52,535 bases of DNA from Patescibacteria group bacterium (GTDB lineage Bacteria; Patescibacteriota; Minisyncoccia; Minisyncoccales; JAHCRE01), in contig JAHCRE010000019.1 of assembly GCA_020148145.1 (NCBI GenBank), forward strand, positions 1 through 52,535, read 5' to 3'. This document shows, piece by piece, positions 1 to 52,355 of this stretch. The position numbers were made by a program, and so were the translations under genes. The first letter of the stretch is position 1. The number at the start of each line of letters is the position of its first letter. Under the pieces are notes generated by a model, which worked only from the letters and a program-made list of their open reading frames with translations, was not told the DNA's origin and searched no databases.

Positions 1-65
1 AATATCAATTGTTTAGTTAATAGTTCTTTTATTTCTTTTTTGAAGATATTATAAAAGTTTCTCAT
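1..65 (-). CDS. ABC-2-type transporter permease, N-terminal fragment (runs off the window)
   Basis: ATG at 65..63 overlaps the TGA of the upstream ATPase gene (ATGA). It reads MRNFYNIFKKEIKELLTKQLI and stays open to the window edge. ATPase-permease coupling is the usual layout. Confidence 0.4.
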   Translation of the reverse strand, partial: MRNFYNIFKKEIKELLTKQLI

Positions 66-784
66 CTAATAGCTTTAATAAATACTTCTTCAATGTTTTT
101 GGCATTATATTTTTCTTTTAATTCCTGAGGAGTGCCAGTTTCCAAAATTACTCCTTTATCTATTAAAGCGATTCTATCACATAAAAAGTCCACCTCCAGC
201 ATATTATGAGAGGATAGTAAAACCGTTGTCCCTTTTTTAACAAAATCCTTAATGATTCTTCTCATTTCCTGAGAAATTATCACATCCAATCCCGCTGTCG
301 GCTCATCTAAAATAGCTAGCTCAGGATTTATCATTAAAGTTCTGGCCACCAATAATCTTCTTGTCATTCCCTTACTATAGGTGCTTACTTTATCTTTTAT
401 GCGCTTTCCGAGTTTAGCTAATCCTATTCCTCTGTCCGTTATTTCTCTTTTTTCTTCATTACTATTTGAATAAAATCCAGCCATAAATTCCAAATAATCC
501 TTTCCTGATAAATTTTTATAAGCACCAGCCTCTTCTGGTAAATAGCTTATTTTCTCTCTAACTTCGTCTGCTTCTTTGATTACATCGTAACCAAATACTT
601 TCACTTCTCCAGAAGTAATTTGCAGTAATGTTGAAATAACCCGCAAGGCAGTAGTTTTTCCAGCTGCATTTGGGCCAATTAAACCAAAGATTTCTCCTTT
701 AGGTACTTCAAAAGAAATACCTTTTAGGGCTCTAAGATTCCCGTAGTCTTTTATTAAATCTTTAATTTCTATTGCTTTATTCAT
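62..784 (-). CDS. ABC transporter ATP-binding protein (ABC-2/NatA-like)
   Basis: Walker A GPNAAGKTT, signature-like YSKGMTRRL, Walker B LAILDEPTAGLD, H-loop SSHNM. Confidence 0.9.
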   Translation of the reverse strand: MNKAIEIKDLIKDYGNLRALKGISFEVPKGEIFGLIGPNAAGKTTALRVISTLLQITSGEVKVFGYDVIKEADEVREKISYLPEEAGAYKNLSGKDYLEFMAGFYSNSNEEKREITDRGIGLAKLGKRIKDKVSTYSKGMTRRLLVARTLMINPELAILDEPTAGLDVIISQEMRRIIKDFVKKGTTVLLSSHNMLEVDFLCDRIALIDKGVILETGTPQELKEKYNAKNIEEVFIKAIR

Positions 785-848
785 ATAAAGTTTTTTTATT
801 TTAGCATATTTTAAAAAGTCAGTAAAAACTCAAATTAAAGATAATGAA

Positions 849-920
849 ACCACTAAACAGGCTCTAATATCGTCCGTCCCTCGGAGTCGCCGCCGCCCCG
901 AGAGTTTTTCTCGGGAGGTT
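849..920 (+). repeat. Cassette-array boundary repeat, copy 1 (long form)
   Basis: Sequence ACCACTAAACAGGCTCTAATATCGTCCGTCCCTCGGAGTCGCCGCCGCCCCGAGAGTTTTTCTCGGGAGGTT. The core hairpin is CCCGAGA/TCTCGGG at 897-915. Confidence 0.85.
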
Positions 921-978
921 TATTAAAAGGTTGCACAAGCCTAGAAACATATTGATCACGCAAGAAAGACATAATTTC

Positions 979-1009
979 TTGCATATTTTTTAAAAATATG
1001 GTAGATAAT
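979..1009 (+). promoter_or_regulatory. Candidate sigma70-type promoter for the 1025 ORF
   Basis: TTGCAT, 17-nt spacer, TAGATA(AT). Preceded by the hairpin CAAGAAA-N7-TTTCTTG at 961-981. Confidence 0.35.
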
Positions 1010-1024
1010 TGTTAGGTGAAAGTA

Positions 1025-1495
1025 ATGAATGACGTAGAACACGCAGAAAAGCTTGTCGGCGAACTATTTCAGTTGAAATTCGGGACAGATATTCAAATCA
1101 GCGGACAAATGCACCAGCTTTTACGAGATATAACGCCTGAATTGGTACCTCATGTCATCCAAGAGCTCTTTAAAAAAAGAGATGGAGGGAGAAAACTTCT
1201 CTATCTTCCTGATGCTTGTGGTAGTCCTTTGTTTCTGATTGTTAGAACTATTGCAAAGCTCGAAGGGGTCCCATCTGATACTCTTCAGAATCTAGCTAGG
1301 ATATTGGAGTGGCCAGACATTGTGCATCAATTTGATTACTCATTAGTTAACACAATACTTGAAATGCTCAGAGGAATTAAAGATCTTTCTCCAAGAACAA
1401 CGGTTTCTATTAAAACATTCATAGGAAATATGGAGAATTGGCAACGACAGCAGGACATCATAGACACAGCAAGAGCTATAATAAAAGATGCTTAA
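1025..1495 (+). CDS. Hypothetical protein (cassette 1, 156 aa)
   Basis: Long ORF. The ATG at 1025 follows AGGTGA (1013-1018), so I prefer it to the GTG at 1016 in the ORF track. It looks GC-richer than neighbouring genes. I recognise no family. Confidence 0.6.
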   Translation: MNDVEHAEKLVGELFQLKFGTDIQISGQMHQLLRDITPELVPHVIQELFKKRDGGRKLLYLPDACGSPLFLIVRTIAKLEGVPSDTLQNLARILEWPDIVHQFDYSLVNTILEMLRGIKDLSPRTTVSIKTFIGNMENWQRQQDIIDTARAIIKDA

Positions 1496-1532
1496 TTGAC
1501 CAGCACAGAAAGATATAATCCCCCCTTTTTAT

Positions 1533-1561
1533 GCCTTAGTTCATAGAATTAAGGCTTTTTT
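1533..1561 (+). terminator. Rho-independent terminator of cassette 1
   Basis: GCCTTA-N11-TAAGGC stem followed by a T run. Confidence 0.6.
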
Positions 1562-1569
1562 ATTTAAAC

Positions 1570-1670
1570 ACCCTTAAAACAGGTTCTAACCCCAGTAGTA
1601 GAACAAAATTCACTACGGGGCACGCATCGTCCATTAGGGGGACCCGCCCCCGAGAGTTTTTCTCGGGGTT
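1570..1670 (+). repeat. Cassette-array boundary repeat, copy 2 (long form with an extra internal hairpin)
   Basis: Left arm ACCCTTAAAACAGGTTCTAA. Inserted hairpin CCCCAGTAGT..ACTACGGGG at 1590-1620. Then ATCGTCC and the core hairpin CCCCGAGA/TCTCGGGG at 1648-1668. Confidence 0.85.
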
Positions 1671-1697
1671 GACTTTTTAAATGGAGTTTGATAGTAT
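1669..1697 (+). promoter_or_regulatory. Sigma70-type promoter of cassette 2
   Basis: TTGACT (1669-1674), 17-nt spacer, TAGTAT (1692-1697). The -35 box abuts the repeat hairpin. Confidence 0.55.
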
Positions 1698-1716
1698 TCT
1701 TTTAGGAGGTAACTAC

Positions 1717-2055
1717 TTGATAAAAGTATATTCGCTAGAGATCTCTGGATCTCATAAGAAAGGATGGTGGGCACACATCATAAAAGAAAGGAAATTGGGA
1801 GGGTCGCGTAAAGGGACAATGGTGCCATTTCGGGAATTAACTGTCCTTACAGAACAAGACATTCAGAGAGTTTTAAGAGAAGGCTTTAACCACATTGAAA
1901 GAAGCTGTGGCGATATCATTTCTGTTGTTCAAGATATTATGAATGCAGTAAACCCAGATCCAGATCTTCCTAAAGATATAAAGATAGTAAGAAAATACCT
2001 AGTCATAGTTAGAGAACGCCCACCCACGGGTCCGAGAACCTTAAAGAAGAAATAG
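1717..2055 (+). CDS. Hypothetical protein (cassette 2, 112 aa)
   Basis: In-frame TTG at 1717 lies 7 nt after AGGAGG (1704-1709). The ORF-track ATG at 1681 lies inside the predicted promoter. I recognise no family. Confidence 0.55.
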   Translation: MIKVYSLEISGSHKKGWWAHIIKERKLGGSRKGTMVPFRELTVLTEQDIQRVLREGFNHIERSCGDIISVVQDIMNAVNPDPDLPKDIKIVRKYLVIVRERPPTGPRTLKKK

Positions 2056-2081
2056 TAGCTCTTTATCTCTCCATTTTTTAA

Positions 2082-2117
2082 AGGTGTCACTTAACAAAAT
2101 ACGGCACCTCTTTTTTA
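2082..2117 (+). terminator. Rho-independent terminator of cassette 2
   Basis: AGGTGTC..GGCACCT stem (one G-U pair) followed by CTTTTTT. Confidence 0.55.
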
Positions 2118-2150
2118 TTTCCGCCGCCCCCGAGAGTTTTTCTCGGGGTT
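2111..2150 (+). repeat. Cassette-array boundary repeat, copy 3 (short form)
   Basis: TTTTTTATTTCCGCCGCCCCCGAGAGTTTTTCTCGGGGTT. The 8-bp core hairpin is at 2128-2148. Confidence 0.85.
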
Positions 2151-2160
2151 TTTGTTTTTG

Positions 2161-2169
2161 TGGTATAAT
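2161..2169 (+). promoter_or_regulatory. Extended -10 promoter element (TGgTATAAT)
   Basis: TATAAT at 2164-2169 ends 9 nt before the ATG at 2179, which implies a leaderless or near-leaderless mRNA. Confidence 0.5.
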
Positions 2170-2178
2170 TTGATATAT

Positions 2179-2658
2179 ATGCTTAAGGAATCAGTTAAAA
2201 CGGGGCTAAGCTTTGGTCTAACTTCTGGAATTATAACAACGCTTGGGTTAATGGTAGGACTTCATTCTGGCACTCATTCAAAACTCGCAGTTATCGGCGG
2301 TATATTAACAATAGCAATAGCAGATGCATTCTCAGATGCGCTGGGTATTCATATTTCAGAAGAATCTGAGGCTAAACATACTGAAAAAGAAATATGGGAA
2401 TCAACAATTTCTACTTTTCTCTCTAAATTCTTGTTTGCTTTAGTATTTATTATCCCAGTTCTCCTTTTAAGGCTTTGGGTAGCAATTATGATAAGTATAA
2501 TCTTTGGGTTATTAATGATAGGTATTTTTAGCTTTAAACTTGCCAAAGAACAAAATATAAAGCCCTGGAAAGCGACTACAGAGCACCTAATTGTTGCTCT
2601 ATTAGTTATAGTTATAACTCATTATATTGGTGATTGGATATCATCAAAGTTTGGTTAA
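2179..2658 (+). CDS. VIT1/CCC1-like (DUF125-type) membrane protein (cassette 3)
   Basis: Multi-TM protein with GLSFGLTSGIITTLGLMVGL and AIADAFSDALGIHISEES motifs that resemble the VIT family. The start is moved to ATG 2179 because the upstream codons overlap the -10 box. Confidence 0.45.
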   Translation: MLKESVKTGLSFGLTSGIITTLGLMVGLHSGTHSKLAVIGGILTIAIADAFSDALGIHISEESEAKHTEKEIWESTISTFLSKFLFALVFIIPVLLLRLWVAIMISIIFGLLMIGIFSFKLAKEQNIKPWKATTEHLIVALLVIVITHYIGDWISSKFG

Positions 2659-2718
2659 ATAATTTGTAATAATTTCCTTACTTTTATTAAAGTAATTTCA
2701 GGCTGCTTGATTATATTT

Positions 2719-2816
2719 ACTCATTCAAAGGTTCTCCACCTTCGTTGAAACTTCGGCGGACAAGTAAAATCGTCCGCTAGACCGAGCTCGCTTGCCCGAG
2801 AGTTTTCCTCGGGGTT
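2719..2816 (+). repeat. Cassette-array boundary repeat, copy 4 (long form)
   Basis: Left arm ACTCATTCAAAGGTTCTCC, an inserted segment, ATCGTCCGCTAGACCGAGCTCGCTTG, then the core hairpin CCCGAG/CTCGGG at 2795-2813. Confidence 0.8.
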
Positions 2817-2817
2817 C

Positions 2818-2826
2818 TGTTATAAT
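2818..2826 (+). promoter_or_regulatory. Extended -10 promoter element (TGtTATAAT)
   Basis: TATAAT at 2821-2826, a few nt after the repeat hairpin. Confidence 0.45.
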
Positions 2827-2884
2827 AAAACAATAAAACAAAGGTCGACACTATCATCAATTAAATTTTACTAATTTTAAAAAT

Positions 2885-3514
2885 ATGAATAAAAGAAAGG
2901 TTTTAGCAATTTTATCCGTAATCGTAATTTTATTTTCGGTAGGATATGTCTTGGTAAATAATTGGGTTACAGCCCAAGAAAACGGAATAGTTATCGAAGA
3001 TAACGAAACTAACGAAAATGACGAAATTGTCATTGCCGGCGAAGATGACGAAACTGAAGACGAGGTTGGAAAGGCAGAAAAACAATTCGATAAACTTTTG
3101 AAACGATTAGAAAAAGCAGAATTTAAACTCTTTAAAGCACCAGCATCTCTCATTATCACCTCTAAAGGAAAAGCTACATTTGTTAATGCTGATTTAGCGG
3201 CAATAGAAACAGTAACTCCAGCAGAGAGCGGTATTTTGACAGTAAAGATTCATGGTTTAAATTTTGATGTAGATGCTTCAAAGGCAAAGATTTATGGTGG
3301 TGGAAAAAAGATTACAATTTCTGATCTTCAGATAGGAGATAAGTTATTAATTAAAGGTGTAGTGAATGAAGAAACAGGGATAATTGAAGCTACTCGAATT
3401 CACGATCGATCTATTCATAAAAAATCTATTGATAATCTTAGAGCAAGAATTCAAGAACTACTAAGAAAGATTGAAGAGCTTCGAGCAAGATTGGAGGCGA
3501 TGAGAGGTGATTAA
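2885..3514 (+). CDS. Secreted or membrane-anchored protein, acidic linker plus beta-rich domain (cassette 4)
   Basis: N-terminal hydrophobic anchor VLAILSVIVILFSVGYVLV, a D/E-rich stretch, and a C-terminal helix LRARIQELLRKIEELRARLE. No confident family call. Confidence 0.6.
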   Translation: MNKRKVLAILSVIVILFSVGYVLVNNWVTAQENGIVIEDNETNENDEIVIAGEDDETEDEVGKAEKQFDKLLKRLEKAEFKLFKAPASLIITSKGKATFVNADLAAIETVTPAESGILTVKIHGLNFDVDASKAKIYGGGKKITISDLQIGDKLLIKGVVNEETGIIEATRIHDRSIHKKSIDNLRARIQELLRKIEELRARLEAMRGD

Positions 3515-3646
3515 GAAATCCAGAACTCAACAATTATCTTAAGGTTGATTTTCAATCAAATTCTTTCTACTTTTAGATCTTTAGAGTAAGTTCTAATAAT
3601 TCTTTTGTTTGCCGCAAAACAACCCCAGGATTTTTAATCAAATCCA

Positions 3647-3718
3647 CCCACTCAAAGGTTTGAAAATCGTCCGTCCCGCGGAGCCGCCGCCCCGCCTTGG
3701 GAGGTTTTCTCTCGGGTT
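3647..3718 (+). repeat. Cassette-array boundary repeat, copy 5 (long form, degenerate hairpin)
   Basis: CCCACTCAAAGGTTTGAAAATCGTCCGTCCCGCGGAGCCGCCGCCCCGCCTTGGGAGGTTTTCTCTCGGGTT. It aligns closely with copy 1. Confidence 0.8.
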
Positions 3719-3722
3719 TTAT

Positions 3723-3750
3723 TTAACAAGAATCTAATATTGAATATAAT
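3723..3750 (+). promoter_or_regulatory. Candidate promoter of cassette 5
   Basis: TTAACA, 16-nt spacer, TATAAT (3745-3750). Confidence 0.4.
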
Positions 3751-3778
3751 AGAAACAGTACAAAAAGGAGGATTGAGA

Positions 3779-3973
3779 TTGGATAAACTATTTCAAGATC
3801 TAAAGGTTGGAACTTTCTTTCTGATGAATCTACCAAAAGAAAATCATCCAGATTGGGAGGTCGCGACATCCGCTCTTCATAAAAAAGTAAAGAACGACGC
3901 AGCAGTAAGGATAACAGACGGCAACTACCACGCAATAGCTCCTGGAAGATCTGTACGAGTAGTTCACATCTAA
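3779..3973 (+). CDS. Hypothetical small protein (cassette 5, 64 aa)
   Basis: In-frame TTG at 3779 lies 7 nt after GGAGG (3767-3771). The ORF-track start at 3740 overlaps the -10 box. The ORF looks GC-richer than the resident genes. Confidence 0.5.
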   Translation: MDKLFQDLKVGTFFLMNLPKENHPDWEVATSALHKKVKNDAAVRITDGNYHAIAPGRSVRVVHI

Positions 3974-3992
3974 AATTCGTTCTTTTACCTAT

Positions 3993-4024
3993 GCCCCGAG
4001 ACATGATAAAGCGGGGCTTTTTTA
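3993..4024 (+). terminator. Rho-independent terminator of cassette 5
   Basis: GCCCCG-N13-CGGGGC followed by a T run. Confidence 0.65.
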
Positions 4025-4074
4025 TTTCCGCCGCCCCCCCCCGAGAGCTTTTCTCGGGGGTTTTGTTCGCCGCC
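4018..4074 (+). repeat. Cassette-array boundary repeat, copy 6 (short form)
   Basis: TTTTTTATTTCCGCCGCCCCCCCCGAGAGCTTTTCTCGGGGGTTTTGTTCGCCGCC. The 9-bp core hairpin is at 4038-4060. Confidence 0.85.
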
Positions 4075-4076
4075 AT

Positions 4077-4105
4077 TTGACAAATTATTTATTTGGGTGT
4101 AAAAT
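4077..4105 (+). promoter_or_regulatory. Sigma70-type promoter of cassette 6
   Basis: TTGACA (4077-4082), 17-nt spacer, TAAAAT (4100-4105). Confidence 0.6.
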
Positions 4106-4131
4106 ATAATATAACCAAAGGAGGTGATTGC

Positions 4132-4362
4132 GTGGCTAATGTGCTTTGTGTAAGCGCAAATCTGAAGGAATTAAATGAAAAAGCAACAAGCAAGGTGTGG
4201 AGTCTCCAGAGCTTATTGTCCAAATGGACTACAGTCGTAGAAGAAACCGTTAGAAAGGATACTATGCAGAATATGCGACTCGTGAATGTTCTTCCCGTGA
4301 GATATGTTGCAGGAACATTGGAGGAAGCAATTCTCATTTTCGTTCCAAAGGAGGAGAGCTAA
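4132..4362 (+). CDS. Hypothetical small protein (cassette 6, 76 aa)
   Basis: In-frame GTG at 4132 lies 7 nt after AAGGAGGTGA (4118-4127). The ORF-track start at 4093 lies inside the promoter. Confidence 0.5.
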   Translation: MANVLCVSANLKELNEKATSKVWSLQSLLSKWTTVVEETVRKDTMQNMRLVNVLPVRYVAGTLEEAILIFVPKEES

Positions 4363-4377
4363 ACCAATAAAGTCCTA

Positions 4378-4405
4378 CGGGCAGACTCTTAATGCCCGTT
4401 TTTTT
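4378..4405 (+). terminator. Rho-independent terminator of cassette 6
   Basis: CGGGCA-N9-TGCCCG followed by TTTTTTT. Confidence 0.65.
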
Positions 4406-4472
4406 ATTTCCGCCGCCCCGAGAGCCTGCCGTGAACCGAGCTTCGCTCTGGTTCGTGGTTTCTCTTGGGGTT
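4399..4472 (+). repeat. Cassette-array boundary repeat, copy 7 (short form, loop interrupted by a second GC hairpin)
   Basis: TTTTTTTATTTCCGCCGCCCCGAGAG, then the insert CCTGCCGTGAACCGAGCTTCGCTCTGGTTCGTGG, then TTTCTCTTGGGGTT. Confidence 0.8.
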
Positions 4473-4478
4473 TTGATT

Positions 4479-4487
4479 TGGTATAAT
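4479..4487 (+). promoter_or_regulatory. Extended -10 promoter element (TGgTATAAT)
   Basis: TATAAT at 4482-4487, downstream of repeat copy 7. Confidence 0.45.
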
Positions 4488-4537
4488 TTGTTAAAGGTCA
4501 AATAATTAATTGAGAAAAATTAAAACTAATAAATAAG

Positions 4538-4864
4538 ATGTATATTGAAATTTTAATTGCTGGATTTGGAGGAGGAGTTATCAGGGGATTAATTGGATTC
4601 ATTAAGCATCAATACTCCTACAAAAATGTTGGTTTTCGTCTACCTTATTTTTTTAATATGATGTTCCTTTCTGGCATCGTGGGAGTCTTAACTGCCGTAG
4701 CCATTAAAGAATTGGGTATGACTTTTCTGGGTCTAGACTATCTCACTCCAGCCCTAGCCCTTATTATCGGTTATGCCGGCGGAGATTTTATTGAAAACGT
4801 TTACAAAATCATCATTAAAAAACCCTCCCTTTATTCTTTCCCAAAGGATTTGGAAACAAAATAA
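4538..4864 (+). CDS. Small integral membrane protein (108 aa)
   Basis: Three predicted hydrophobic helices (ILIAGFGGGVIRGLIGFI, FFNMMFLSGIVGVLTAVAI, LTPALALIIGYAGG). No family recognised. Confidence 0.6.
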   Translation: MYIEILIAGFGGGVIRGLIGFIKHQYSYKNVGFRLPYFFNMMFLSGIVGVLTAVAIKELGMTFLGLDYLTPALALIIGYAGGDFIENVYKIIIKKPSLYSFPKDLETK

Positions 4865-23172: not shown

Positions 23173-24222
23173 TTAAACTTCTGGACTCCAACTAATTAAA
23201 TTTCCTTTTATCTCAAACTTTCCATCTATAAATTTTTCGATTGCCCAGATGTTAGTTTTGCAGTGATTAGTAACTTCTGAAACTGTAAATTTACTCTCTT
23301 TGGGAACCAGGGCCACATAAGGTAAAATTTGGTCAGCCAAATGTTTATCTAAGCAGGCCTGGGTTTTTTGTTCTCTTAATAATTCTAGGGCTGCTTCTTT
23401 TCCGACATTTTCAGCTCTCTTTCCTAATTTTCCTAAATTATCTACTCCAATCACTGTATTCTCAAATTGACAAATTAGACAAATTTGGCTTCCCGGGCAT
23501 TGAGTTTCATGATATTTAACTTTTTCTTCAATTGGTAATTTTAATTTTCCTAAGATTTCTCTAACTCCAAAAATTTGCCTTTCAGCAACTTTTTTATTTT
23601 TCAAAAATTCTGAGGCTCCAGAAATAACTAAAATTTTTTGAAGTTCTCCTCTTTCTAAAAGATTGAGGTTTTTTATTTTTGAGGGAAAAATTTTTACTTC
23701 AACTTTTGCCCCTCCTTCTGGATAATAACCTCTTTTCAAAACATTTATTTCAGTTTTAACCCCGATTTTTTCTAAAATTTTTAAAAAACAATATCTGAAA
23801 TGGTCAATAGTTGGAGAAAAGAAAGTATCAGTAGCGCCTCCATTAAAAACAATCTTCACTGGCCCTGGAGCAAAGAGGCTGGGTAAAATTAGAGTCTGTA
23901 AAACTAAAGTAATACTTCCGGCAGTTTTAATTCTAACATTGACTGAAATTTGTTTTTGGCTAATTTCGCCAGGATAAAATTTTATATCCTCACTTTCTAG
24001 TTTATCACCCTCTAATCTTCCATTACAAAGTTGAGCTAAGGCCTGAATTCCTAAAAGATGCTGGGGTCTTAAACCGGGCTTTGGTCTACTTTTACGAATA
24101 TTAAAAACATGACAGGATTTTTTAGTCACTACTGAAAGAGCAGTTGCTACTCTTAATATAGCCCCACCCCCTTCATATTTTGAACCATCTATCTCAATTA
24201 GATTTTGATTAAATTGAATCAT
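23173..24222 (-). CDS. rtcA: RNA 3'-terminal phosphate cyclase
   Basis: IEIDGSKYEGGGAILRVATALSVVT, RPKPGLRPQHL, DKHLADQILPY. Confidence 0.85.
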   Translation of the reverse strand: MIQFNQNLIEIDGSKYEGGGAILRVATALSVVTKKSCHVFNIRKSRPKPGLRPQHLLGIQALAQLCNGRLEGDKLESEDIKFYPGEISQKQISVNVRIKTAGSITLVLQTLILPSLFAPGPVKIVFNGGATDTFFSPTIDHFRYCFLKILEKIGVKTEINVLKRGYYPEGGAKVEVKIFPSKIKNLNLLERGELQKILVISGASEFLKNKKVAERQIFGVREILGKLKLPIEEKVKYHETQCPGSQICLICQFENTVIGVDNLGKLGKRAENVGKEAALELLREQKTQACLDKHLADQILPYVALVPKESKFTVSEVTNHCKTNIWAIEKFIDGKFEIKGNLISWSPEV

Positions 24223-29314: not shown

Positions 29315-29386
29315 TGCCCTTGAGAGGAATCGAACCCCTATCTCAAGCTCCGGAGGCTCGCGTTCTATCCGTTGAACTACAAGGGC
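29315..29386 (-). tRNA. tRNA-Arg (anticodon CCG)
   Basis: 72-nt cloverleaf folded by hand. Acceptor GCCCTTG/CAAGGGC, D stem GTTC/GAAC, anticodon stem CGAGC/GCTTG with loop CTCCGGA, T arm AGGGG-TTCGATT-CCTCT, discriminator A. No encoded CCA. Confidence 0.9.
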
Positions 29387-37921: not shown

Positions 37922-39364
37922 TTATTCGCCCTTAATTACTGCCAAGGGCACAAGCCTTGCCACTTTTTTTGATAAACCAGCCCGATGGACGACATCAACT
38001 ACTTGTTCCACATCTTTATAAGCCATTGGCGCTTCTTCAGCAATTCCTCTCATTGACCAGCATTTCACAATGATTCCTTTTGATTCTAACTCTCTCACTA
38101 CTTCTTGTCCAGAAATTCTTCTGACCGCTGCGTGCCGTGACATTGTTCTACCGGCACCGTGGCAAGTACTAAAGAAAGCATTTTCTCCTTCCTTTTGACC
38201 AACTAAAATATAAGAAGCAGTTCCCATTGAGCCTGGGATCAAAACTGGCTGACCAACTTCTCGATATTTTTCTGGGATTTCAGGATGCCCCGGTGGAAAG
38301 GCCCGAGTGGCTCCTTTTCGATGAATAACTAACTTCATTTTTTTTCCATTAACCTCATGCTCTTCGATTTTAGCAATATTATGAGCAACATCATAAAGTA
38401 ATTGAAGCTCTTCTTTTTCTCCTAATATCTTTTTCCAAGCTTTTCTTACATAGTGAGCAATCATATGGCGGTTTGACCAGGCATAATTACAAACGGCAGA
38501 CATTGCTTTAAAGAATCTTTGCCCTTCTGGAGAATTAAATGGAACGCAAGCTAATTCTCTATCTGGAAGTTTGATGCCATATTTTGGCATAGCCTGCATC
38601 ACTACTCTTAAATAATCAGTACAATTTTGATGCCCAAGCCCCCTAGAACCGGTATGTATCATCACTACTACCTGGTTCTTGAATAATCCGAAAGCTTCTG
38701 CTACCTCTGCGTCAAAAATTTCCTCAACCCTATCAAGTTGGCAAAAATGATTGCCACTTCCGAGAGTGCCAACTTGATTCCTTCCTCTGTTTTTAGCTTT
38801 TTCAGAAACGCAAAAGGCATCAGCTAATTCCATTTTTCCTGTGTGTTCACAATTTTCAATATCCTCTTTTTCTCCATATCCCTGTTTTACAAGATAGGGA
38901 ACCCCTCCCTCTAAAATTTTGTTAATTTGCTCAATGCTTAACTTTATTTTTCTCCCCCTTCCCAAACCAGAGGGAACTTCTTTTTGAATTTCAGTAGCTA
39001 ATTTATCCAAGTGAGGCTTGACCTCTTTTTCAGAATGTTCAGACTTCAGCAATCTAACCCCACAATTTTCGTCATAACCGACAAAGCCAGGAGAAATAAC
39101 TCCACCTGGTAATTTCATTGCCCCTACTCCGCCAATGGGGGCACCGTAGCCCTCATGCATATCTGGCATACCCAAAACATACTTTACAACCCCAAGAAGC
39201 GTTGAGGTGTTTATTACTTGAGGAATTGACCTATCTCGGAAAATATCTTTCAACATCTTTTCTGAAACATAAATTCTGGCAGGAACTCGCATATCCGGCC
39301 GGAAATTTTTTGGAATTTCCCATAAATAATCTGTAATCTTTTTGAAATTTTGTTTTGTAATCAT
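37922..39364 (-). CDS. rtcB: RNA-splicing ligase RtcB (3'-phosphate/5'-hydroxyl RNA ligase)
   Basis: MPDMHEGYG, GYDENCGVR, GSGNHF, HTGSRGLGHQ, STCHGAGR. Confidence 0.95.
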   Translation of the reverse strand: MITKQNFKKITDYLWEIPKNFRPDMRVPARIYVSEKMLKDIFRDRSIPQVINTSTLLGVVKYVLGMPDMHEGYGAPIGGVGAMKLPGGVISPGFVGYDENCGVRLLKSEHSEKEVKPHLDKLATEIQKEVPSGLGRGRKIKLSIEQINKILEGGVPYLVKQGYGEKEDIENCEHTGKMELADAFCVSEKAKNRGRNQVGTLGSGNHFCQLDRVEEIFDAEVAEAFGLFKNQVVVMIHTGSRGLGHQNCTDYLRVVMQAMPKYGIKLPDRELACVPFNSPEGQRFFKAMSAVCNYAWSNRHMIAHYVRKAWKKILGEKEELQLLYDVAHNIAKIEEHEVNGKKMKLVIHRKGATRAFPPGHPEIPEKYREVGQPVLIPGSMGTASYILVGQKEGENAFFSTCHGAGRTMSRHAAVRRISGQEVVRELESKGIIVKCWSMRGIAEEAPMAYKDVEQVVDVVHRAGLSKKVARLVPLAVIKGE

Positions 39365-40085: not shown

Positions 40086-40490
40086 TTAGATGTCAAATAA
40101 CACCGTTGCTTCCCAAGTCCCGTCTTTTTTTTGAAGAACGTCTAATTCATGATAAGTCACTGCCTTAATATCTTCACCAAATCTTTTTACTTTTTGACCG
40201 ATTAATTCTCCTTTAATTTCTCTATCGGTGAATTTAATAAATTTGGCATTAAAATAGATTTCTTTATTCACCTGACTTAAATAAAGGGCCTCGCTCAAAA
40301 AATCAACTAAAAGAGCAGCTAAATCAAGGGATTTTATTTTAATTTCTCTCTTTGTTTTTTTTGCTAATTTTTCAGCCTTTTGAGAATCTGCCATCCCAAA
40401 AAGCATATTCAAAAAAAGCTCCGGCTTTTCTTTACCGAAAGCCCTGATTTTTAAATCAGCCTTATGCTCTAAAATCTCATATTTTTTCAT
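40086..40490 (-). CDS. Archease (RtcB activator/chaperone)
   Basis: YEILEHKADLKIRAFG and a C-terminal IKAVTYHELDV. TAATG overlap with the upstream gene. Confidence 0.85.
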   Translation of the reverse strand: MKKYEILEHKADLKIRAFGKEKPELFLNMLFGMADSQKAEKLAKKTKREIKIKSLDLAALLVDFLSEALYLSQVNKEIYFNAKFIKFTDREIKGELIGQKVKRFGEDIKAVTYHELDVLQKKDGTWEATVLFDI

Positions 40491-48333: not shown

Positions 48334-49890
48334 TTAAAGTTCTTCTAAGAATTTTTTAAATTTTTCTTTAACCGGTAATGTAAAATAGAAAGTTGTTCCT
48401 TTATTCTCTTTAGATTCAAACCAAATTTTTCCCCCATGAGCTTCAATAATGTTTTTGGTGGTAAATAAACCGAGGCCAGTGCCTTCAGTCTCCATCCTCA
48501 TTACATTAGCTGCTCGAAAAAACTTAGTAAATACTCTTTCTTGCTGATCTTCGGGGATTCCTACCCCGGTATCCTCTATTGAGAATTCTATTTCTTTTTT
48601 AGCATATTTTAAAGAAACTGTCACCTGGCCACCGGGGAAAGTATATCTTATGGCATTGTCAAGAAGGTTCTCAATTACTACTTTCATTTTCTCCGTATCT
48701 ATCAGAATTTTCGGTAATTTTTTTTCTAGTTTCTTGAATTCAAATTTAATATTTTTTCTCTCAATTTCTTCGTTAAAAGAGTTTATTACGGATCGAACAA
48801 TCTCTTCAATATTAGCAAATATTGGTCGATAAATATATCTCCCTTCTTCTATCCTGGCTACGTTTAAAAGATCATTAATTAAATTAATCATTCTCTCATT
48901 AGATCGGTAAGTCTTTTTTAAGAAATCTCGTTGCTCTTTTGTTATTTCTCCTAAATCTCCATCTAATAACATACGTAGCGTCCATTTAATTGCCGAGAGG
49001 GGGGTTCTTAATTGATGGGCAGAAAGAGAGACAAATTCTGTTTTCATTCTCTCAATTAATTTCTCTCTGGTAATATCGTGTAAGATAACTAAAGTTCCTA
49101 ATTTTTCTTTTTCTCTTATAAAAGGGGTGGTGGTTATTTCTAAAACTAAATTTTTTCCTAAGGAAAGTTCTTTTCTAAAAATCTTCTTAATTTCTTCACC
49201 AAAAAGATTTATTAAGGACTTAAAGGGAGAAAATTTAGCAATTTTGGAAATAGACTTACCGACTATTTTTTTAGCCTTAATCTCAAAAAAGTCTTCAGCC
49301 TGAGGATTAATTAGCAAAAGATTATTTTCTTTATCAAAAACCAAAAGACCGTCAGCAAAATTAGTAATAATTGCCAAGGTTTTATTTTTTTCTTCCTCAA
49401 CTCTTTCTCTCTCTTTTTCAGTATCTTCAAGCATATTTAAAAGAGCAGTCTGGGCATTTTTAAGTTCCCCTTCCTTTTTTTTAATATCAATTAAATCAAA
49501 AAAGCCAATAAAATAGCCGATAATTTCTCCTTCCTCACTTTTTCTCAATACAGTAGAAGCGCTTACTGGAACCTTTCTCTTCTCTTTTGTGAAGATATTA
49601 ATTTCTTTTCCCTTAACAAAACCTTTTTCTATGGTGTCTTTAGATAATATTTCAATCTCTTCTTTGATAAAAAGGTTTTCTACCGGTTTTCCAATAATCT
49701 CCTCTATTTTGTAACCAGAGATTCTTTCAAGAGCAGGGTTGGCTTCTAAAATTATCCCAATTGAACTAATAAGACAAACTGGTAAGGGTAAAAAAGAAAA
49801 TAAATCACTGGCATAGCTTTCAAGAGAGGCTAAGTCTTCAAGGAGGATAGAAATTTTATTTTCCTCTTTGTTTTTTTCTTTTATTTCCAT
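48334..49890 (-). CDS. Soluble PAS-PAS sensor histidine kinase
   Basis: Two PAS-like regions, H-box SAHQLRTPLSAI, N-box ENLLDNAIRYT, G-boxes DTGVGIP and GTGLGL. No TM segment. Confidence 0.9.
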   Translation of the reverse strand: MEIKEKNKEENKISILLEDLASLESYASDLFSFLPLPVCLISSIGIILEANPALERISGYKIEEIIGKPVENLFIKEEIEILSKDTIEKGFVKGKEINIFTKEKRKVPVSASTVLRKSEEGEIIGYFIGFFDLIDIKKKEGELKNAQTALLNMLEDTEKERERVEEEKNKTLAIITNFADGLLVFDKENNLLLINPQAEDFFEIKAKKIVGKSISKIAKFSPFKSLINLFGEEIKKIFRKELSLGKNLVLEITTTPFIREKEKLGTLVILHDITREKLIERMKTEFVSLSAHQLRTPLSAIKWTLRMLLDGDLGEITKEQRDFLKKTYRSNERMINLINDLLNVARIEEGRYIYRPIFANIEEIVRSVINSFNEEIERKNIKFEFKKLEKKLPKILIDTEKMKVVIENLLDNAIRYTFPGGQVTVSLKYAKKEIEFSIEDTGVGIPEDQQERVFTKFFRAANVMRMETEGTGLGLFTTKNIIEAHGGKIWFESKENKGTTFYFTLPVKEKFKKFLEEL

Positions 49891-50489
49891 TTTATTAAAA
49901 ATTCATGATATTCATCTCCCCGAAAAAAACATTTAGTTTCTTGGCAAGTTATTTTAGGGCTTTTCACCATTAGCTGAAAGGGCCCAGGGAAATAACCTTC
50001 TAGATAGCGACAATAAACAGGGTGGAGATTAAAATTTTTCAACTGGATAATAGCATATTTTTTTTCTTCATTTAGTTCAACCGGAACTAATTCACCAACA
50101 GTCCAATGTTTTCTCCAAAGTTTTGAGGTCTGTTTATTAAAAGCTAATTTGAGAGAAAAAACATATTTTATAAAAAACTTAACAATCAAGGAGACCTTAG
50201 TGGCAAAAATTCCCATCTCTTTAATTTTTTCATCATTAAAATTAAAAATTTTCTTAATGGCTAAAAGAGAAAGGGCCCTTAACCCCACTGGATAAAAAGC
50301 CATGGTCTTAATTTCTTTATATTTTATTGGATAACCTAATTTCTCTAGTTCATCTTCTAATTCTTTTAAACCTTCTTTCCCTTTTTCTTTAAAGATAAAT
50401 TCTCCATCGGTTTTGAAAACCACCCCCCTTACTTCACCTTTAATTTCCATTAATTTTTTAACAGTTTCTTTTGTAAGTTCCTGATTCAT
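49881..50489 (-). CDS. V4R/DUF2378-like putative ligand-binding protein, paralogue A2
   Basis: 202 aa. Ends ITCQETKCFFRGDEYHEFLIKWK. Conserved C-x21-C-x4-C-x7-H pattern. 10-nt overlap with the kinase start. Confidence 0.4.
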   Translation of the reverse strand: MNQELTKETVKKLMEIKGEVRGVVFKTDGEFIFKEKGKEGLKELEDELEKLGYPIKYKEIKTMAFYPVGLRALSLLAIKKIFNFNDEKIKEMGIFATKVSLIVKFFIKYVFSLKLAFNKQTSKLWRKHWTVGELVPVELNEEKKYAIIQLKNFNLHPVYCRYLEGYFPGPFQLMVKSPKITCQETKCFFRGDEYHEFLIKWK

Positions 50490-50510
50490 GCAAAAATATT
50501 TTAAATAGTT

Positions 50511-51089
50511 TTATAATTGGCCTTTATTTTTTAATTCTTTTTTAAGTCTCTCAATCTCTTTTTTAAGTTCAATCATTTTTAATTCTCGGCCAACAGCTAC
50601 TTTTCGAAATTTTTCTAACTCTTCCATTTTTTTTTGGAGTTCTTTAGTTCTTTCACTAACTTGTCGCTTCAATTCCTCTCGGAATTTTTTACTCTCGCGG
50701 ATATCAACAAAGGCAAGGAAAAACCCAATAATGTTTCCTTTTCTATCTTCCCGGGCACGAGAATAAACAGCCACTGCTACCTTCTCGCTCTTTTTGGTTA
50801 ATAAATCTGTCTCTCGATTACTTAAGCCCCTTTTTTTGAGGGTCTGATCTATAATCTCTGAAGCTTCTTTTTCGGCCAAAACAGAACTAAGGTGTTTTCC
50901 AGATATTTCTGAGATTGTCCACAAAGAAAAATCTTCAAAAGCCCGATTAACATCTAAAATAAAGCCTTTGGAACTGAGATAGCTAAGAGCTAAAGGTAAA
51001 AATTGCCAGAGGCTTTTAGTATAGTCGGTTAAACCTTCTAAATGTTGTGACAAAATTTCTAATTCACTCTTTCTAATTTTTTTTCCCAT
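50511..51089 (-). CDS. PAS domain plus coiled-coil protein (no output domain)
   Basis: The PAS region resembles the N-terminal PAS of the kinase (LWQFLPLALSYLSSKGFILDVN against LFSFLPLPVCLISSIGIILEAN). C-terminal heptad-rich helix ending VAVGRELKMIELKKEIERLKKEL. Confidence 0.6.
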   Translation of the reverse strand: MGKKIRKSELEILSQHLEGLTDYTKSLWQFLPLALSYLSSKGFILDVNRAFEDFSLWTISEISGKHLSSVLAEKEASEIIDQTLKKRGLSNRETDLLTKKSEKVAVAVYSRAREDRKGNIIGFFLAFVDIRESKKFREELKRQVSERTKELQKKMEELEKFRKVAVGRELKMIELKKEIERLKKELKNKGQL

Positions 51090-51110
51090 GAATTAATTTA
51101 AATTTCTTTT

Positions 51111-51734
51111 CTATTTTTCCCAGGTAACTTTGAATAGATGGCCTTCCCCTTTTCCTTTTAGACAACATTTTACCTCTCGGCATTTCGGTTCTTTAACTAT
51201 ATAAGAGACGATCTGTTGAATAACTCCTTCCATATATCGGCAGTAAACTTGATGACCAGGGAAATCCTTAAGAATTAAAAGGACGCATCTTTCTTTTTCA
51301 TTTAAGTCAATACCCTCCATTTTCCCAACTGTATAATACATATTCCAATAATTAGATATCTCTTGAAAACACTTTCTCATCGTAACAAAGTATTTCATCA
51401 TTATTTTGGTAATTAAAGAAATCTTTTGAGCATTAGCACCCATTCGACGAATCGTCTCATCGTCCCATTCAAACAGTTCTTTAGCTACTAGAACTGAAAG
51501 TAAGTAATATCCTACGGGATACCATTTAAAATTTTTAAGCTCCCGATATTTTAGAGGATAGCCCAATTCAGCCATTGCCTTCTCAACTTTTTTTACTCCC
51601 TCTTCTCCTTTTTCTTTTAAAATAAAATCAAGATCCTCGATGAGGCCAGTACCAATGAGCTTGCCAGGAAGAGATATTAATCTTTTAATTTCTTTTTTAG
51701 AGATTTTTTTTCTAGTTTTAGAAGTTTTTTTCAT
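51111..51734 (-). CDS. V4R/DUF2378-like putative ligand-binding protein, paralogue B
   Basis: 207 aa, basic N-terminal tail. Shares LGYPLKYRELK..WYPVG and YCRYMEG..KCREVKCCLKGKGEGHLF with paralogues A1 and A2. Confidence 0.4.
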   Translation of the reverse strand: MKKTSKTRKKISKKEIKRLISLPGKLIGTGLIEDLDFILKEKGEEGVKKVEKAMAELGYPLKYRELKNFKWYPVGYYLLSVLVAKELFEWDDETIRRMGANAQKISLITKIMMKYFVTMRKCFQEISNYWNMYYTVGKMEGIDLNEKERCVLLILKDFPGHQVYCRYMEGVIQQIVSYIVKEPKCREVKCCLKGKGEGHLFKVTWEK

Positions 51735-51746
51735 ATTTTAACTTTT

Positions 51747-52355
51747 TTATTTCCATTTTAATAAATACTTATGGTGTCTATCTCCCCGAAAATAGCATTT
51801 AATTTCTTCACAGGTTATTTGAGGGCTTTTTACTATCAATTGTAAAATTCCAGAAAAGTAGCCCCTTAAATAATAACAATAAAGATGATGAAGATTAAAG
51901 TTTTCTACTTTTAAAATCGCATATTTCTTTTCTTCATCTAGTTCGAGTGGAATGAGGTCACCGGTAGTCCAGTGCTCTTTCCAGATTTTTGGAGCCTCTT
52001 TGAAAAAAACTCTTTGAACAGAAAGAAAGTACCTTATAAAAAGCTTAACAATTAAGGATTTCTTTGTGGCAAAGAATCCCATTTCTTTAATTTTCTCATC
52101 ATCAAAATTAAAAATTTTCTTAATGGCTAAAAGAGAAAGGGCCCTTAATCCCACTGGATAAAAGGCCATTGTCTCAATTTCTTTGTATTTAATTGGATAA
52201 CCCAATTTTTCTAGTTCATCTTCTAATTTTTTAAGACCTTCTTTTCCTTTCTCTTTTAAAATATAGTCTCCATCGGTTTTGAAAACTACCCCCCTTACTT
52301 CACCTTTAATTTCCATTAATTTTTTGATGGTTTCTTTTGTGATTTCTTGGTTCAT
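51747..52355 (-). CDS. V4R/DUF2378-like putative ligand-binding protein, paralogue A1
   Basis: 202 aa. The N-terminal half is nearly identical to A2 and the C-terminal half is clearly diverged. Confidence 0.4.
   Translation of the reverse strand: MNQEITKETIKKLMEIKGEVRGVVFKTDGDYILKEKGKEGLKKLEDELEKLGYPIKYKEIETMAFYPVGLRALSLLAIKKIFNFDDEKIKEMGFFATKKSLIVKLFIRYFLSVQRVFFKEAPKIWKEHWTTGDLIPLELDEEKKYAILKVENFNLHHLYCYYLRGYFSGILQLIVKSPQITCEEIKCYFRGDRHHKYLLKWK

Follow-up and report, generated by a model that had tools for sequence, protein, structure and literature searches.

A tRNA 3'-end-like element at the boundaries of a single-gene cassette array in Patescibacteria

A contig from a Patescibacteria group bacterium (JAHCRE010000019.1, assembly GCA_020148145.1) carries an array of small, same-strand genes separated by composite boundaries. 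We analyzed this contig as a stretch of 52,535 nucleotides (nt), hereafter the window, which belongs to a 203-kb metagenome scaffold (ERZ23498930 scaffold_13); searches covered ~72 kb of that scaffold. In their long form, the boundaries consist of a mimic of a tRNA 3' end, a terminator-type hairpin, and a promoter-like box, and they divide the array into single-gene cassettes. We refer to the tRNA-like left arm as L and to the GC-rich hairpin as H; designations such as L012 or L096 are numbered loci of relatives or metagenomes. Arrays with this element usually start at tRNA genes, cassette content varies among relatives, and breakpoints between relatives fall in the boundary. Sequence comparisons point to the left arm as the conserved part that is associated with recombination. 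We judge the chances to be even that this is an integron-like, tRNA-seeded cassette array in which L and its adjoining tail would serve as an att-type site.

A first-pass annotation of the same DNA had recognized a same-strand array of single-gene cassettes. That description stands: the cassettes are mostly orphans, and their content is variable between relatives.

Bacteria of this group, also called the Candidate Phyla Radiation (CPR), have tiny genomes, few recognizable mobile elements, and many orphan genes, and the way in which they acquire and replace accessory genes is poorly understood. A short site of defined sequence at the boundaries of hundreds of single-gene cassettes, across many uncultured lineages, would point to a recombination system with an enzyme to be found, and the 20-mer at its core would be a simple handle on the CPR flexible gene pool in metagenomes. 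For a group in which genetic tools are almost entirely missing, the boundaries would also offer a natural cassette architecture of terminator and promoter.

L and its tail resemble the 3' end of a tRNA

L is a conserved 20-mer, AACAGGTTCTAACATCGTCC, which together with a variable tail of 11 to 13 nt makes a site of ~33 nt. This site corresponds to the T arm plus the acceptor 3' strand of a tRNA, except that its T loop is longer by five bases, and alignments to the tRNAs of related loci contain a single 5-nt T-loop gap every time. Copy 5 of the window is identical to the tRNA-Asn of relatives at 21 of 26 positions, and the copy in L196 matches its tRNA-His at 20 of 25. In L096, the copy and the tRNA-Gln gene ~1.1 kb upstream share 48 of 52 positions when the flank and H are included. 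The tail has the geometry of a tRNA, with 3 nt of T stem, 7 nt of acceptor strand, and a discriminator base, and tails fall into Asn-like, Gln-like, and His-like classes. A general pairing of the tail with the 5' arm of the hairpin was considered and rejected; it is feasible for some tails only.

L-bearing arrays usually start behind tRNA-Gln, tRNA-Asn, or tRNA-His, and a full-length tRNA gene heads 25 related loci. The nearest same-strand tRNA gene within 6 kb upstream of L is one of these three for 53 of 59 copies. The tail also tracks the local tRNA: its 8-nt acceptor part differs from the local tRNA end by 2.64 mismatches, compared with 3.71 for randomly assigned tRNAs (25 loci), and none of 2,000 permutations gave a value as low. 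In L241, a homologue of the fourth cassette gene of the window (c4; 63% identical) resides directly 3' of a full tRNA and a short-form boundary, with the same 5' untranslated region (UTR) as in the window. The window has L plus tail ahead of c4 in the position taken by this full tRNA.

A metagenome scan with the exact 20-mer produced at least 120 stretches, and L reaches densities of 6 copies in 5.9 kb and 11 in 14 kb among the stretches listed. The element is conserved across many metagenome-assembled genomes (MAGs) and across lineages with differing hairpins and promoters. Copies are almost always intergenic (283 of 293), with a median spacing of 835 bp, and tandem double-L units occur with a spacing of 55 to 79 nt. 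L has the orientation of the upstream open reading frame (ORF) in 202 of 226 cases and that of the downstream ORF in 167 of 193 cases, or ~88% overall. In L138, L169, and L219, the 3' end of a small opposite-strand gene, similar across these contigs, lies just past L; these genes look like reverse-oriented cassettes.

The strong co-orientation with flanking genes and the placement 3' of ORFs would also suit an element that acts in RNA, such as a module in the 3' UTR or at the transcript end whose likeness to a tRNA 3' end would serve, for example, to recruit or block enzymes of tRNA-end processing or decay. The variable gene content would then be incidental. This idea gains from the finding that true tRNA genes are followed by this hairpin and promoter as well, and from the fact that one position in L tolerates hairpins of variable length, as structured RNAs do. 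However, many copies of L reside behind a separate terminator and hence should be poorly transcribed, the acceptor stem has no partner strand, and an L-flanked insert would be left without explanation. When folded as single strands, four of the seven boundaries in the window are no better than shuffled sequences, and Rfam yields nothing relevant at E ≤ 10 in 780-4560 and no boundary match at the gathering threshold. Hairpin variants contain 11 G·U and 13 A·C pairs, a count that carries no RNA-strand signature and does not separate RNA-level from DNA-level selection. A role at the RNA level is therefore unlikely in our estimation.

Cassette content and breakpoints differ between relatives

The first-pass annotation had raised the possibility that relatives differ in cassette content, with breakpoints inside the repeat. 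This is what is observed: relatives do not carry the same genes at the locus, and breakpoints lie in the boundary both in CR_Bin_053, which is the nearest MAG, and between L170 and L219. The conserved part of the boundary is the left arm, which that annotation had deemed secondary.

A segment with an ABC transporter gene (window 62-875; L085 2591-3164) has 95.6% nucleotide identity to CR_Bin_053, and this block ends inside L. Because other genes common to the window and CR_Bin_053 are only 72-77% identical, a recent transfer of an L-bounded operon is suggested. At the place where the window has one L, in boundary 1, CR_Bin_053 has two direct copies of L 1,179 bp apart around two genes. This one L is a hybrid: its left flank is that of the first CR_Bin_053 copy, and its tail and H match the second copy.

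A cassette encoding a VIT1-family transporter (c3) is found in three gene contexts, namely in the window, in CR_Bin_053 (~14 kb from the ABC gene), and in a JGI contig, and in all three it has H upstream and L downstream. The c3 gene is 86% identical to its counterpart in CR_Bin_053 and 83% to that in the JGI contig. Homology between the window and CR_Bin_053 begins at CCGCCGCC-H and stops exactly past the tail ...GACCGAGC. Similarly, a stretch over which L170 and L219 are 99.7% identical begins precisely past ...GGAGC. No window cassette other than VIT1 is present in the relatives' loci that were examined. Modules composed of a promoter and 5' UTR also recur ahead of unrelated ORFs.

Site-specific capture or homologous shuffling

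These observations could reflect a dedicated, integron-analogous cassette-capture system of CPR bacteria, with a ~33-nt tRNA-end-like site and a trans-acting enzyme, whose arrays form at tRNA-Gln, tRNA-Asn, and tRNA-His genes and at secondary sites. We propose this specific system tentatively, at somewhat less than even chances. A cassette would comprise hairpin, promoter, ORF, and L plus tail. Insertion or exchange would occur by site-specific recombination between L-plus-tail sites and either the 3' ends of tRNA-Gln, tRNA-Asn, or tRNA-His or existing array copies, catalyzed by a recombinase encoded elsewhere and acting in trans. Successive insertions would produce tandem arrays, as in integrons or tandem tRNA-targeting islands. 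The hairpin with its U-run, followed 4 to 85 nt later by a promoter, may end the upstream unit, start the next, and so insulate each; this module could additionally supply 40 to 75 nt of near-identical sequence for homologous exchange. We infer, in other words, that recombination is site specific and enzyme driven, and that the hairpins and promoters function as such.

Several findings count against such a system. No integrase, resolvase, or transposase is found in the window or in the ~72 kb of scaffold, no recombinase family recurs by Pfam among 113 large ORFs of element-bearing genome loci, and all-against-all clustering of 494 large ORFs gives no recurrent recombinase-like cluster. The recombinase that the first-pass annotation suggested looking for outside the window thus did not appear in these ~72 kb of scaffold or among these ORFs of element-bearing loci. 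Also, L is not the inverted-repeat core site typical of tyrosine recombinases, three of the seven boundaries in the window (the short form) do not have L, and the array in the window is not next to a tRNA gene: none is present within ~10 kb leftward or before 29.3 kb rightward. Finally, breakpoints are found at several positions (inside L, past the tail, and at CCGCCGCC-H), which would fit plain homologous recombination as well.

The main rival explanation is accordingly of that type. PeSLs (promoter early stem-loops) of T4-like phages consist of a stem-loop terminator plus a promoter between small orphan genes, and indels and replacements end in this motif (PMC2839356; PMC4122927). Their exchange has been attributed to homologous recombination (PMC2839356, PMC4122927). 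By analogy, RecA-type recombination could shuffle terminator/promoter modules, either after DNA uptake or within a genome, with no dedicated site or enzyme, the tRNA-like part being a passenger from the flanks of tRNA genes. In accord with this idea, modules of 40 to 100 nt that are 85-98% identical surround unrelated genes. These include the short-form boundary (in the window, L012, L026, L045, and L096), the module at 3706-3781 with its counterpart in L096, and a double-L unit with its counterpart in L095. The several module edges at which breakpoints lie, and the failure to find a recombinase, are likewise expected.

PeSL-like shuffling leaves several features without explanation: the retention of the exact 20-mer across many lineages with different hairpins and promoters, a tail that has tRNA geometry and tracks the local tRNA, and an identity that stops exactly at the tRNA-like 3' end. 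Moreover, L, at 20 nt, does not exceed the homology that RecA usually requires for efficient exchange. We consider PeSL-like shuffling doubtful, but it ranks as the main rival to site-specific capture; readings of the boundary as an RNA-level element, as plain terminators, or as miniature repeats fit less well. If only homologous shuffling is at work, the array would still be the first example in a cellular genome, as far as our literature search showed, of what PeSLs do in phages.

H is a predicted terminator module typical of the clade

The first-pass annotation reported seven copies of the hairpin, and all seven hold up. The pattern CCCGAGAG-N3-6-CTCGGG matches five times, all on the plus strand (897, 1649, 2129, 2795, and 4040), where none is expected (100 shuffles). 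Two further copies comprise a degenerate one (3696-3716) and one that is interrupted by an extra hairpin in place of the loop (4417-4470), which has a predicted fold of -48.3 kcal/mol (z = -5.1). As that annotation also stated, the core is found nowhere else in the 52.5 kb, even when three mismatches are allowed.

H is a GC-rich stem-loop followed by a U-run, located 3' of a co-oriented gene, and on sequence alone it would qualify as an intrinsic terminator. A terminator scan calls every copy (12 sites, compared with 3.1 expected). In a scan of one genome per species, exact copies are present on many contigs of CR_Bin_053 (at least nine), CR_Bin_039, and Modern_marine.mb.304, and single exact copies are present in other CPR groups. 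In relatives, H occurs directly 3' of true tRNA genes (tRNA-Gln in L096 and tRNA-His in L109) and of ordinary genes, and it is usually followed immediately by TTGAC or TGnTATAAT. The occurrence of H behind tRNA and ordinary genes in related MAGs argues that it is a clade-typical terminator-plus-promoter module. Among metagenome stretches with the exact 20-mer, H lies within 100 nt of only 12 of 234 copies of L; L copies without H are followed by another type of hairpin (...ATCGCCnnnnGGCGGTTTTTTGGTAGAAT) or directly by a TTGACA promoter. For these reasons the earlier view of H as the key element was abandoned: the special element is not H, which is a terminator flavor of the clade.

The boundaries might then be nothing but ordinary lineage-specific terminators and promoter spacers, with H as the preferred intrinsic terminator of the clade, no role in gene flux, and a locus that varies by unrelated indels. 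The behavior of H behind tRNA and unrelated protein genes is what such a reading predicts, as are its terminator score and an extra copy ~10 kb beyond the window. However, H does not follow a large share of genes. In the ~72 kb of scaffold there are 11 copies in the array region, together with two boundaries that have another hairpin or none, and one copy elsewhere; all but one are clustered within ~8 kb, whereas ~45 other genes of the window have no H. Conservation of sequence across genera is not normal for terminators, L is not a terminator, and breakpoints coincide with the elements. We regard the plain-terminator reading as very unlikely.

The outlying copy of H is exact (L245 212-230), lies ~9.8 kb past the right end of the window, and adjoins a run of small unannotated genes (74, 124, 91, and 234 aa). 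A 96-nt "tRNA-Phe" that ARAGORN predicts across this copy is implausible.

Long and short forms of the boundary

In the long form, AAACAGGTTCTAACATCGTCC (L) is followed by the 11- to 13-nt tail, a short spacer that is often CCGCCGCC, H, a T-run, and a promoter-like box. In the short form, the upstream gene's own terminator hairpin is followed by TTTTTTATTT-CCGCCGCC and H. The two forms are fused into one long unit in the related loci L026 and L045. The first-pass annotation noted that the short copies (3, 6, and 7) begin with identical sequence at three terminators, and indeed the 20-mer TTTTTTATTTCCGCCGCCCC recurs unchanged at 2111, 4018, and 4400, each time directly 3' of a separate terminator hairpin.

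Long copies 1, 2, 4, and 5 have the left arm in common. As was also recognized in the first pass, copies 2 and 4 are interrupted; hairpin inserts of ~38 and ~33 nt split L in them. The insertion point is always between AGGTTCT(AA) and ATCGTCC, and comparable inserts with different stem and loop sequences are found at the same point of L in L150 and L179. Small hairpin inserts within L, together with the dispersed, multicopy nature of short elements with hairpins and the tandem double-L units, recall selfish miniature repeats, such as miniature inverted-repeat transposable elements (MITEs), repetitive extragenic palindromes (REPs), or bacterial interspersed mosaic elements (BIMEs), that are spread by a transposase and pile up in a tolerant intergenic region. 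However, we saw no terminal inverted repeats or target-site duplications, and no recurrent family resembling a transposase or RAYT (REP-associated tyrosine transposase) was found. Also, copies are predominantly oriented with genes, and the tail varies with the local tRNA. This origin is very improbable, and we rank it last.

The first-pass annotation placed a sigma70 promoter after each repeat. Promoter-like boxes are present 3' of each copy, including TTGACT at 1669, TTGACA at 4077, TGGTATAAT at 2161 and 4479, and TGTTATAAT at 2818. However, a promoter scan overall gives 12 hits compared with 12.7 in shuffled sequences. Because there is no excess, the claim of promoters depends on their position and on conservation in relatives. 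In cassettes that do not have a GGAGG ribosome-binding site, AAAGGTCGA or AAAGGTCAA lies a few bases past the -10 box (2841-2849 and 4494-4502 in the window), and in metagenome contigs the same motif is found downstream of numerous L/hairpin/promoter units.

Comparison with known systems

The element appears not to have been described previously, as the first-pass annotation supposed. In addition to the absence of an Rfam family, our searches of the literature on CPR integrons, repeats, and tRNA islands turned up no description of it. Searches of phage and plasmid sequences by BLAST with boundary 1 produced no match. Viral scans gave eight matches to the hairpin, all of which are unrelated or coding, and three to L, of which two correspond to a coding motif of Dcm methylase and one to a junction in L114 (IMG/VR UViG_3300009529_003397). 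The last 130 nt of L114 are AT-rich and contain a terminator and an exact L plus tail (...CCCGGAGC), and ~14.7 kb of phage-like DNA, with terminase-, portal-, and capsid-sized ORFs and by eye richer in GC, immediately adjoins the L site. Such an arrangement would result either from a prophage that joins the chromosome at L or from a chimeric assembly.

Tycheposon islands of Prochlorococcus are tRNA-seeded, have partial-tRNA attachment repeats, and consist of units that are 10 to 20 kb long and carry integrases (bioRxiv 10.1101/2020.12.28.424599). As in tRNA islands of this type, arrays start at a tRNA 3' end, partial-tRNA direct repeats flank insertions, older units are pushed inward, integrase-less remnants accumulate, and the cargo consists of flexible genes. 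However, the units here are mostly single genes of ~0.3 to 1.2 kb (~2.2 kb for the two-gene ABC operon), and no integrase or replication module was seen at the loci. The repeat also departs from a plain tRNA end: its 5' part is fixed and unlike tRNA, and many lineages have an identical 5-nt insertion in the T loop. The units each have a putative terminator and promoter of their own, and the array of the window is not tRNA-adjacent.

Integrons likewise consist of same-strand, mostly single-ORF cassettes of a few hundred base pairs that are mostly of unknown function and variable among relatives. They have one site-like element at the cassette 3' end, and a nearby integrase may be missing. In contrast, no intI is present in the window, the ~72 kb of scaffold, or the ORFs of element-bearing loci. 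The site here mimics a tRNA end, arrays start at tRNA genes instead of attI, and cassettes appear to have their own TTGACA or TGnTATAAT boxes instead of a common Pc. A reading of the boundaries as attC sites was rejected: none of the seven junctions has GTTRRRY, and there is no R''-L''...L'-R' imperfect palindrome. L plus tail has no palindromic character, and the sole hairpin present has a perfect GC stem with a T-run after it.

The first-pass annotation compared the boundaries with PeSLs, and half of this comparison fits. An apparent composite of terminator stem-loop and promoter lies between small genes in both cases, and the motif is where indels and replacements stop when close relatives are compared. 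The tRNA-like left arm, however, is an extra conserved site that has no PeSL counterpart, and the array is located in a cellular CPR chromosome, whereas PeSLs are found in hyperplastic regions of T4-like phages.

Acinetobacter plasmids contain pdif modules, in which genes are flanked by sites on which the Xer recombinases of the host act. These too are small modules between short conserved sites that are moved by a recombinase the module does not encode. In contrast, L does not have the dif-like 11-6-11 inverted structure, and its copies are direct repeats, chromosomal, and linked to tRNAs. Tycheposon islands, integrons, and PeSLs each have at least one defining feature that the element does not share, and we therefore assign it to none of them.

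Organization of the array

The first-pass annotation confined the array to 849-4490. The scaffold shows that it continues leftward and spans at least 7.8 kb, of which the window holds the right-hand part. The left extension (L246 12156-14083, approximately window positions -3330 to -1290) lies past the ABC2 operon and has four further short-form boundaries, one double-L unit, and genes of 95, 103, and 187 aa on the array strand. Its double-L unit consists of L1, a C/T-rich spacer of ~62 nt, and L2 AGTTCTGAACGCGTCC with a tail, and is 94% identical over 102 nt to a unit in another MAG (CSMAG_1234, L095 2018-2119). Since the array continues beyond the ABC2 operon, same-sense copies of L bracket this operon, which is an inverted two-gene unit. 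Its first gene encodes an ABC transporter ATPase (62-784, minus strand; Pfam ABC_tran), and the operon runs off the window, with the permease and a further L beyond.

Within the window each interval holds one plus-strand ORF (156, 112, 159, 209, 64, and 76 aa), followed by an ORF of 108 aa, in agreement with the first-pass annotation; all boundaries are also on the plus strand. Among these ORFs, only c3 has a Pfam family.

Boundary 1 consists of the L core AAACAGGCTCTAATATCGTCC with the 11-nt tRNA-acceptor-like tail GTCCCTCGGAG (855-886) and of the CCGCCGCC spacer with H (890-915, H at 897-915). It is identical to tRNA-Asn at 18 of 26 positions, with the 5-nt T-loop gap. The c1 ORF (156 aa, 1025-1495) has its own terminator hairpin at 1533-1565 and no homologue among 5.8 billion proteins.

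In boundary 2, L (1577-1643) carries the ~38-nt hairpin insert (1588-1625) between AACAGGTTCT and ATCGTCC, and its tail, ATTAGGGGGAC, is of the tRNA-His-like class. H (1648-1668) is followed immediately by the TTGACT box. The c2 ORF (112 aa, 1717-2055) starts with TTG after AGGAGG; the public gene call has 124 aa from an ATG at 1681.

Boundary 3 is of the short form (2086-2148), with a terminator hairpin, TTTTTTATTT-CCGCCGCC (2111-2128), and H (2128-2148). Its entire 75-nt unit is 90% identical to L012 5375-5453, where it lies behind an unrelated gene. The c3 ORF (159 aa, 2179-2658) encodes a metal transporter of the VIT1/CCC1 family (Pfam VIT1, 2.4e-12). It belongs to a highly conserved family of short VIT1 proteins with thousands of matches, and its identity of ~75% even to Archaeoglobus sulfaticallidus indicates wide horizontal spread.

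At boundary 4, L is split by the ~33-nt insert and has the tail GCTAGACCGAG (2726-2786); the counterpart in CR_Bin_053 has no insert. H (2795-2813) is a TTTTCC-loop variant. The c4 ORF (209 aa, 2885-3514) encodes a protein with an N-terminal membrane anchor, an acidic linker, and a C-terminal coiled coil, and has only five homologues.

Boundary 5 (3652-3716) comprises L AGGTTTGAAAATCGTCC (3656-3672), the tail GTCCCGCGGAG, CCGCCGCC (3684-3691), and the degenerate hairpin. A partial L-like stretch with a small hairpin lies upstream (3588-3650), and this module is common to L012, L026, L031, L045, and L064. The promoter/5'-UTR module at 3706-3781 is 89.6% identical over 77 nt to the leader of an unrelated cassette in CR_Bin_053 (L096). 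The c5 ORF (64 aa, 3779-3973), which starts with TTG after AGGAGG, is not called in the public annotation.

Boundary 6 is of the short form (3993-4060), with a terminator hairpin, TTTTTTATTT-CCGCCGCC (4018-4035), and H (4038-4060). The c6 ORF (76 aa, 4132-4362) starts with GTG after AGGAGG and has no Pfam family, as is also true of c1 and c2. The public gene call has a 117-aa ORF on the minus strand (3723-4076) that passes through hairpin copy 6 and replaces the plus-strand ORFs at 3779-3973 and 4132-4362, both of which have promoter boxes and GGAGG. This minus-strand call is probably spurious.

Boundary 7, also of the short form (4377-4470), has a terminator hairpin, TTTTTTATTT-CCGCCGCC (4400-4417), and the copy of H with the extra loop hairpin. 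The last small ORF (108 aa, 4538-4864) encodes a membrane protein, after which PPAT, DUF362, and further conserved genes follow.

Other features of the window

Bacterial housekeeping genes in the window include uvrB, ruvA, metK, a Mur-ligase-family (murE-like) gene, and one tRNA gene, tRNA-Arg (29315-29386), which is the sole match in the window to Rfam at gathering threshold. Three paralogous genes of 202 to 207 aa without a Pfam family are located at 49881-52355 (minus strand) beside PAS and histidine-kinase genes, and a fourth neighbor runs past the end of the window. In the L118 contig, V4R-domain genes as long as these paralogues surround the VIT1 cassette. Genes for RNA 3'-phosphate cyclase, RtcB ligase, and archease were read by eye at 23173-24222, 37922-39364, and 40086-40490, and together they would make up a set of the RNA-repair or tRNA-splicing type.

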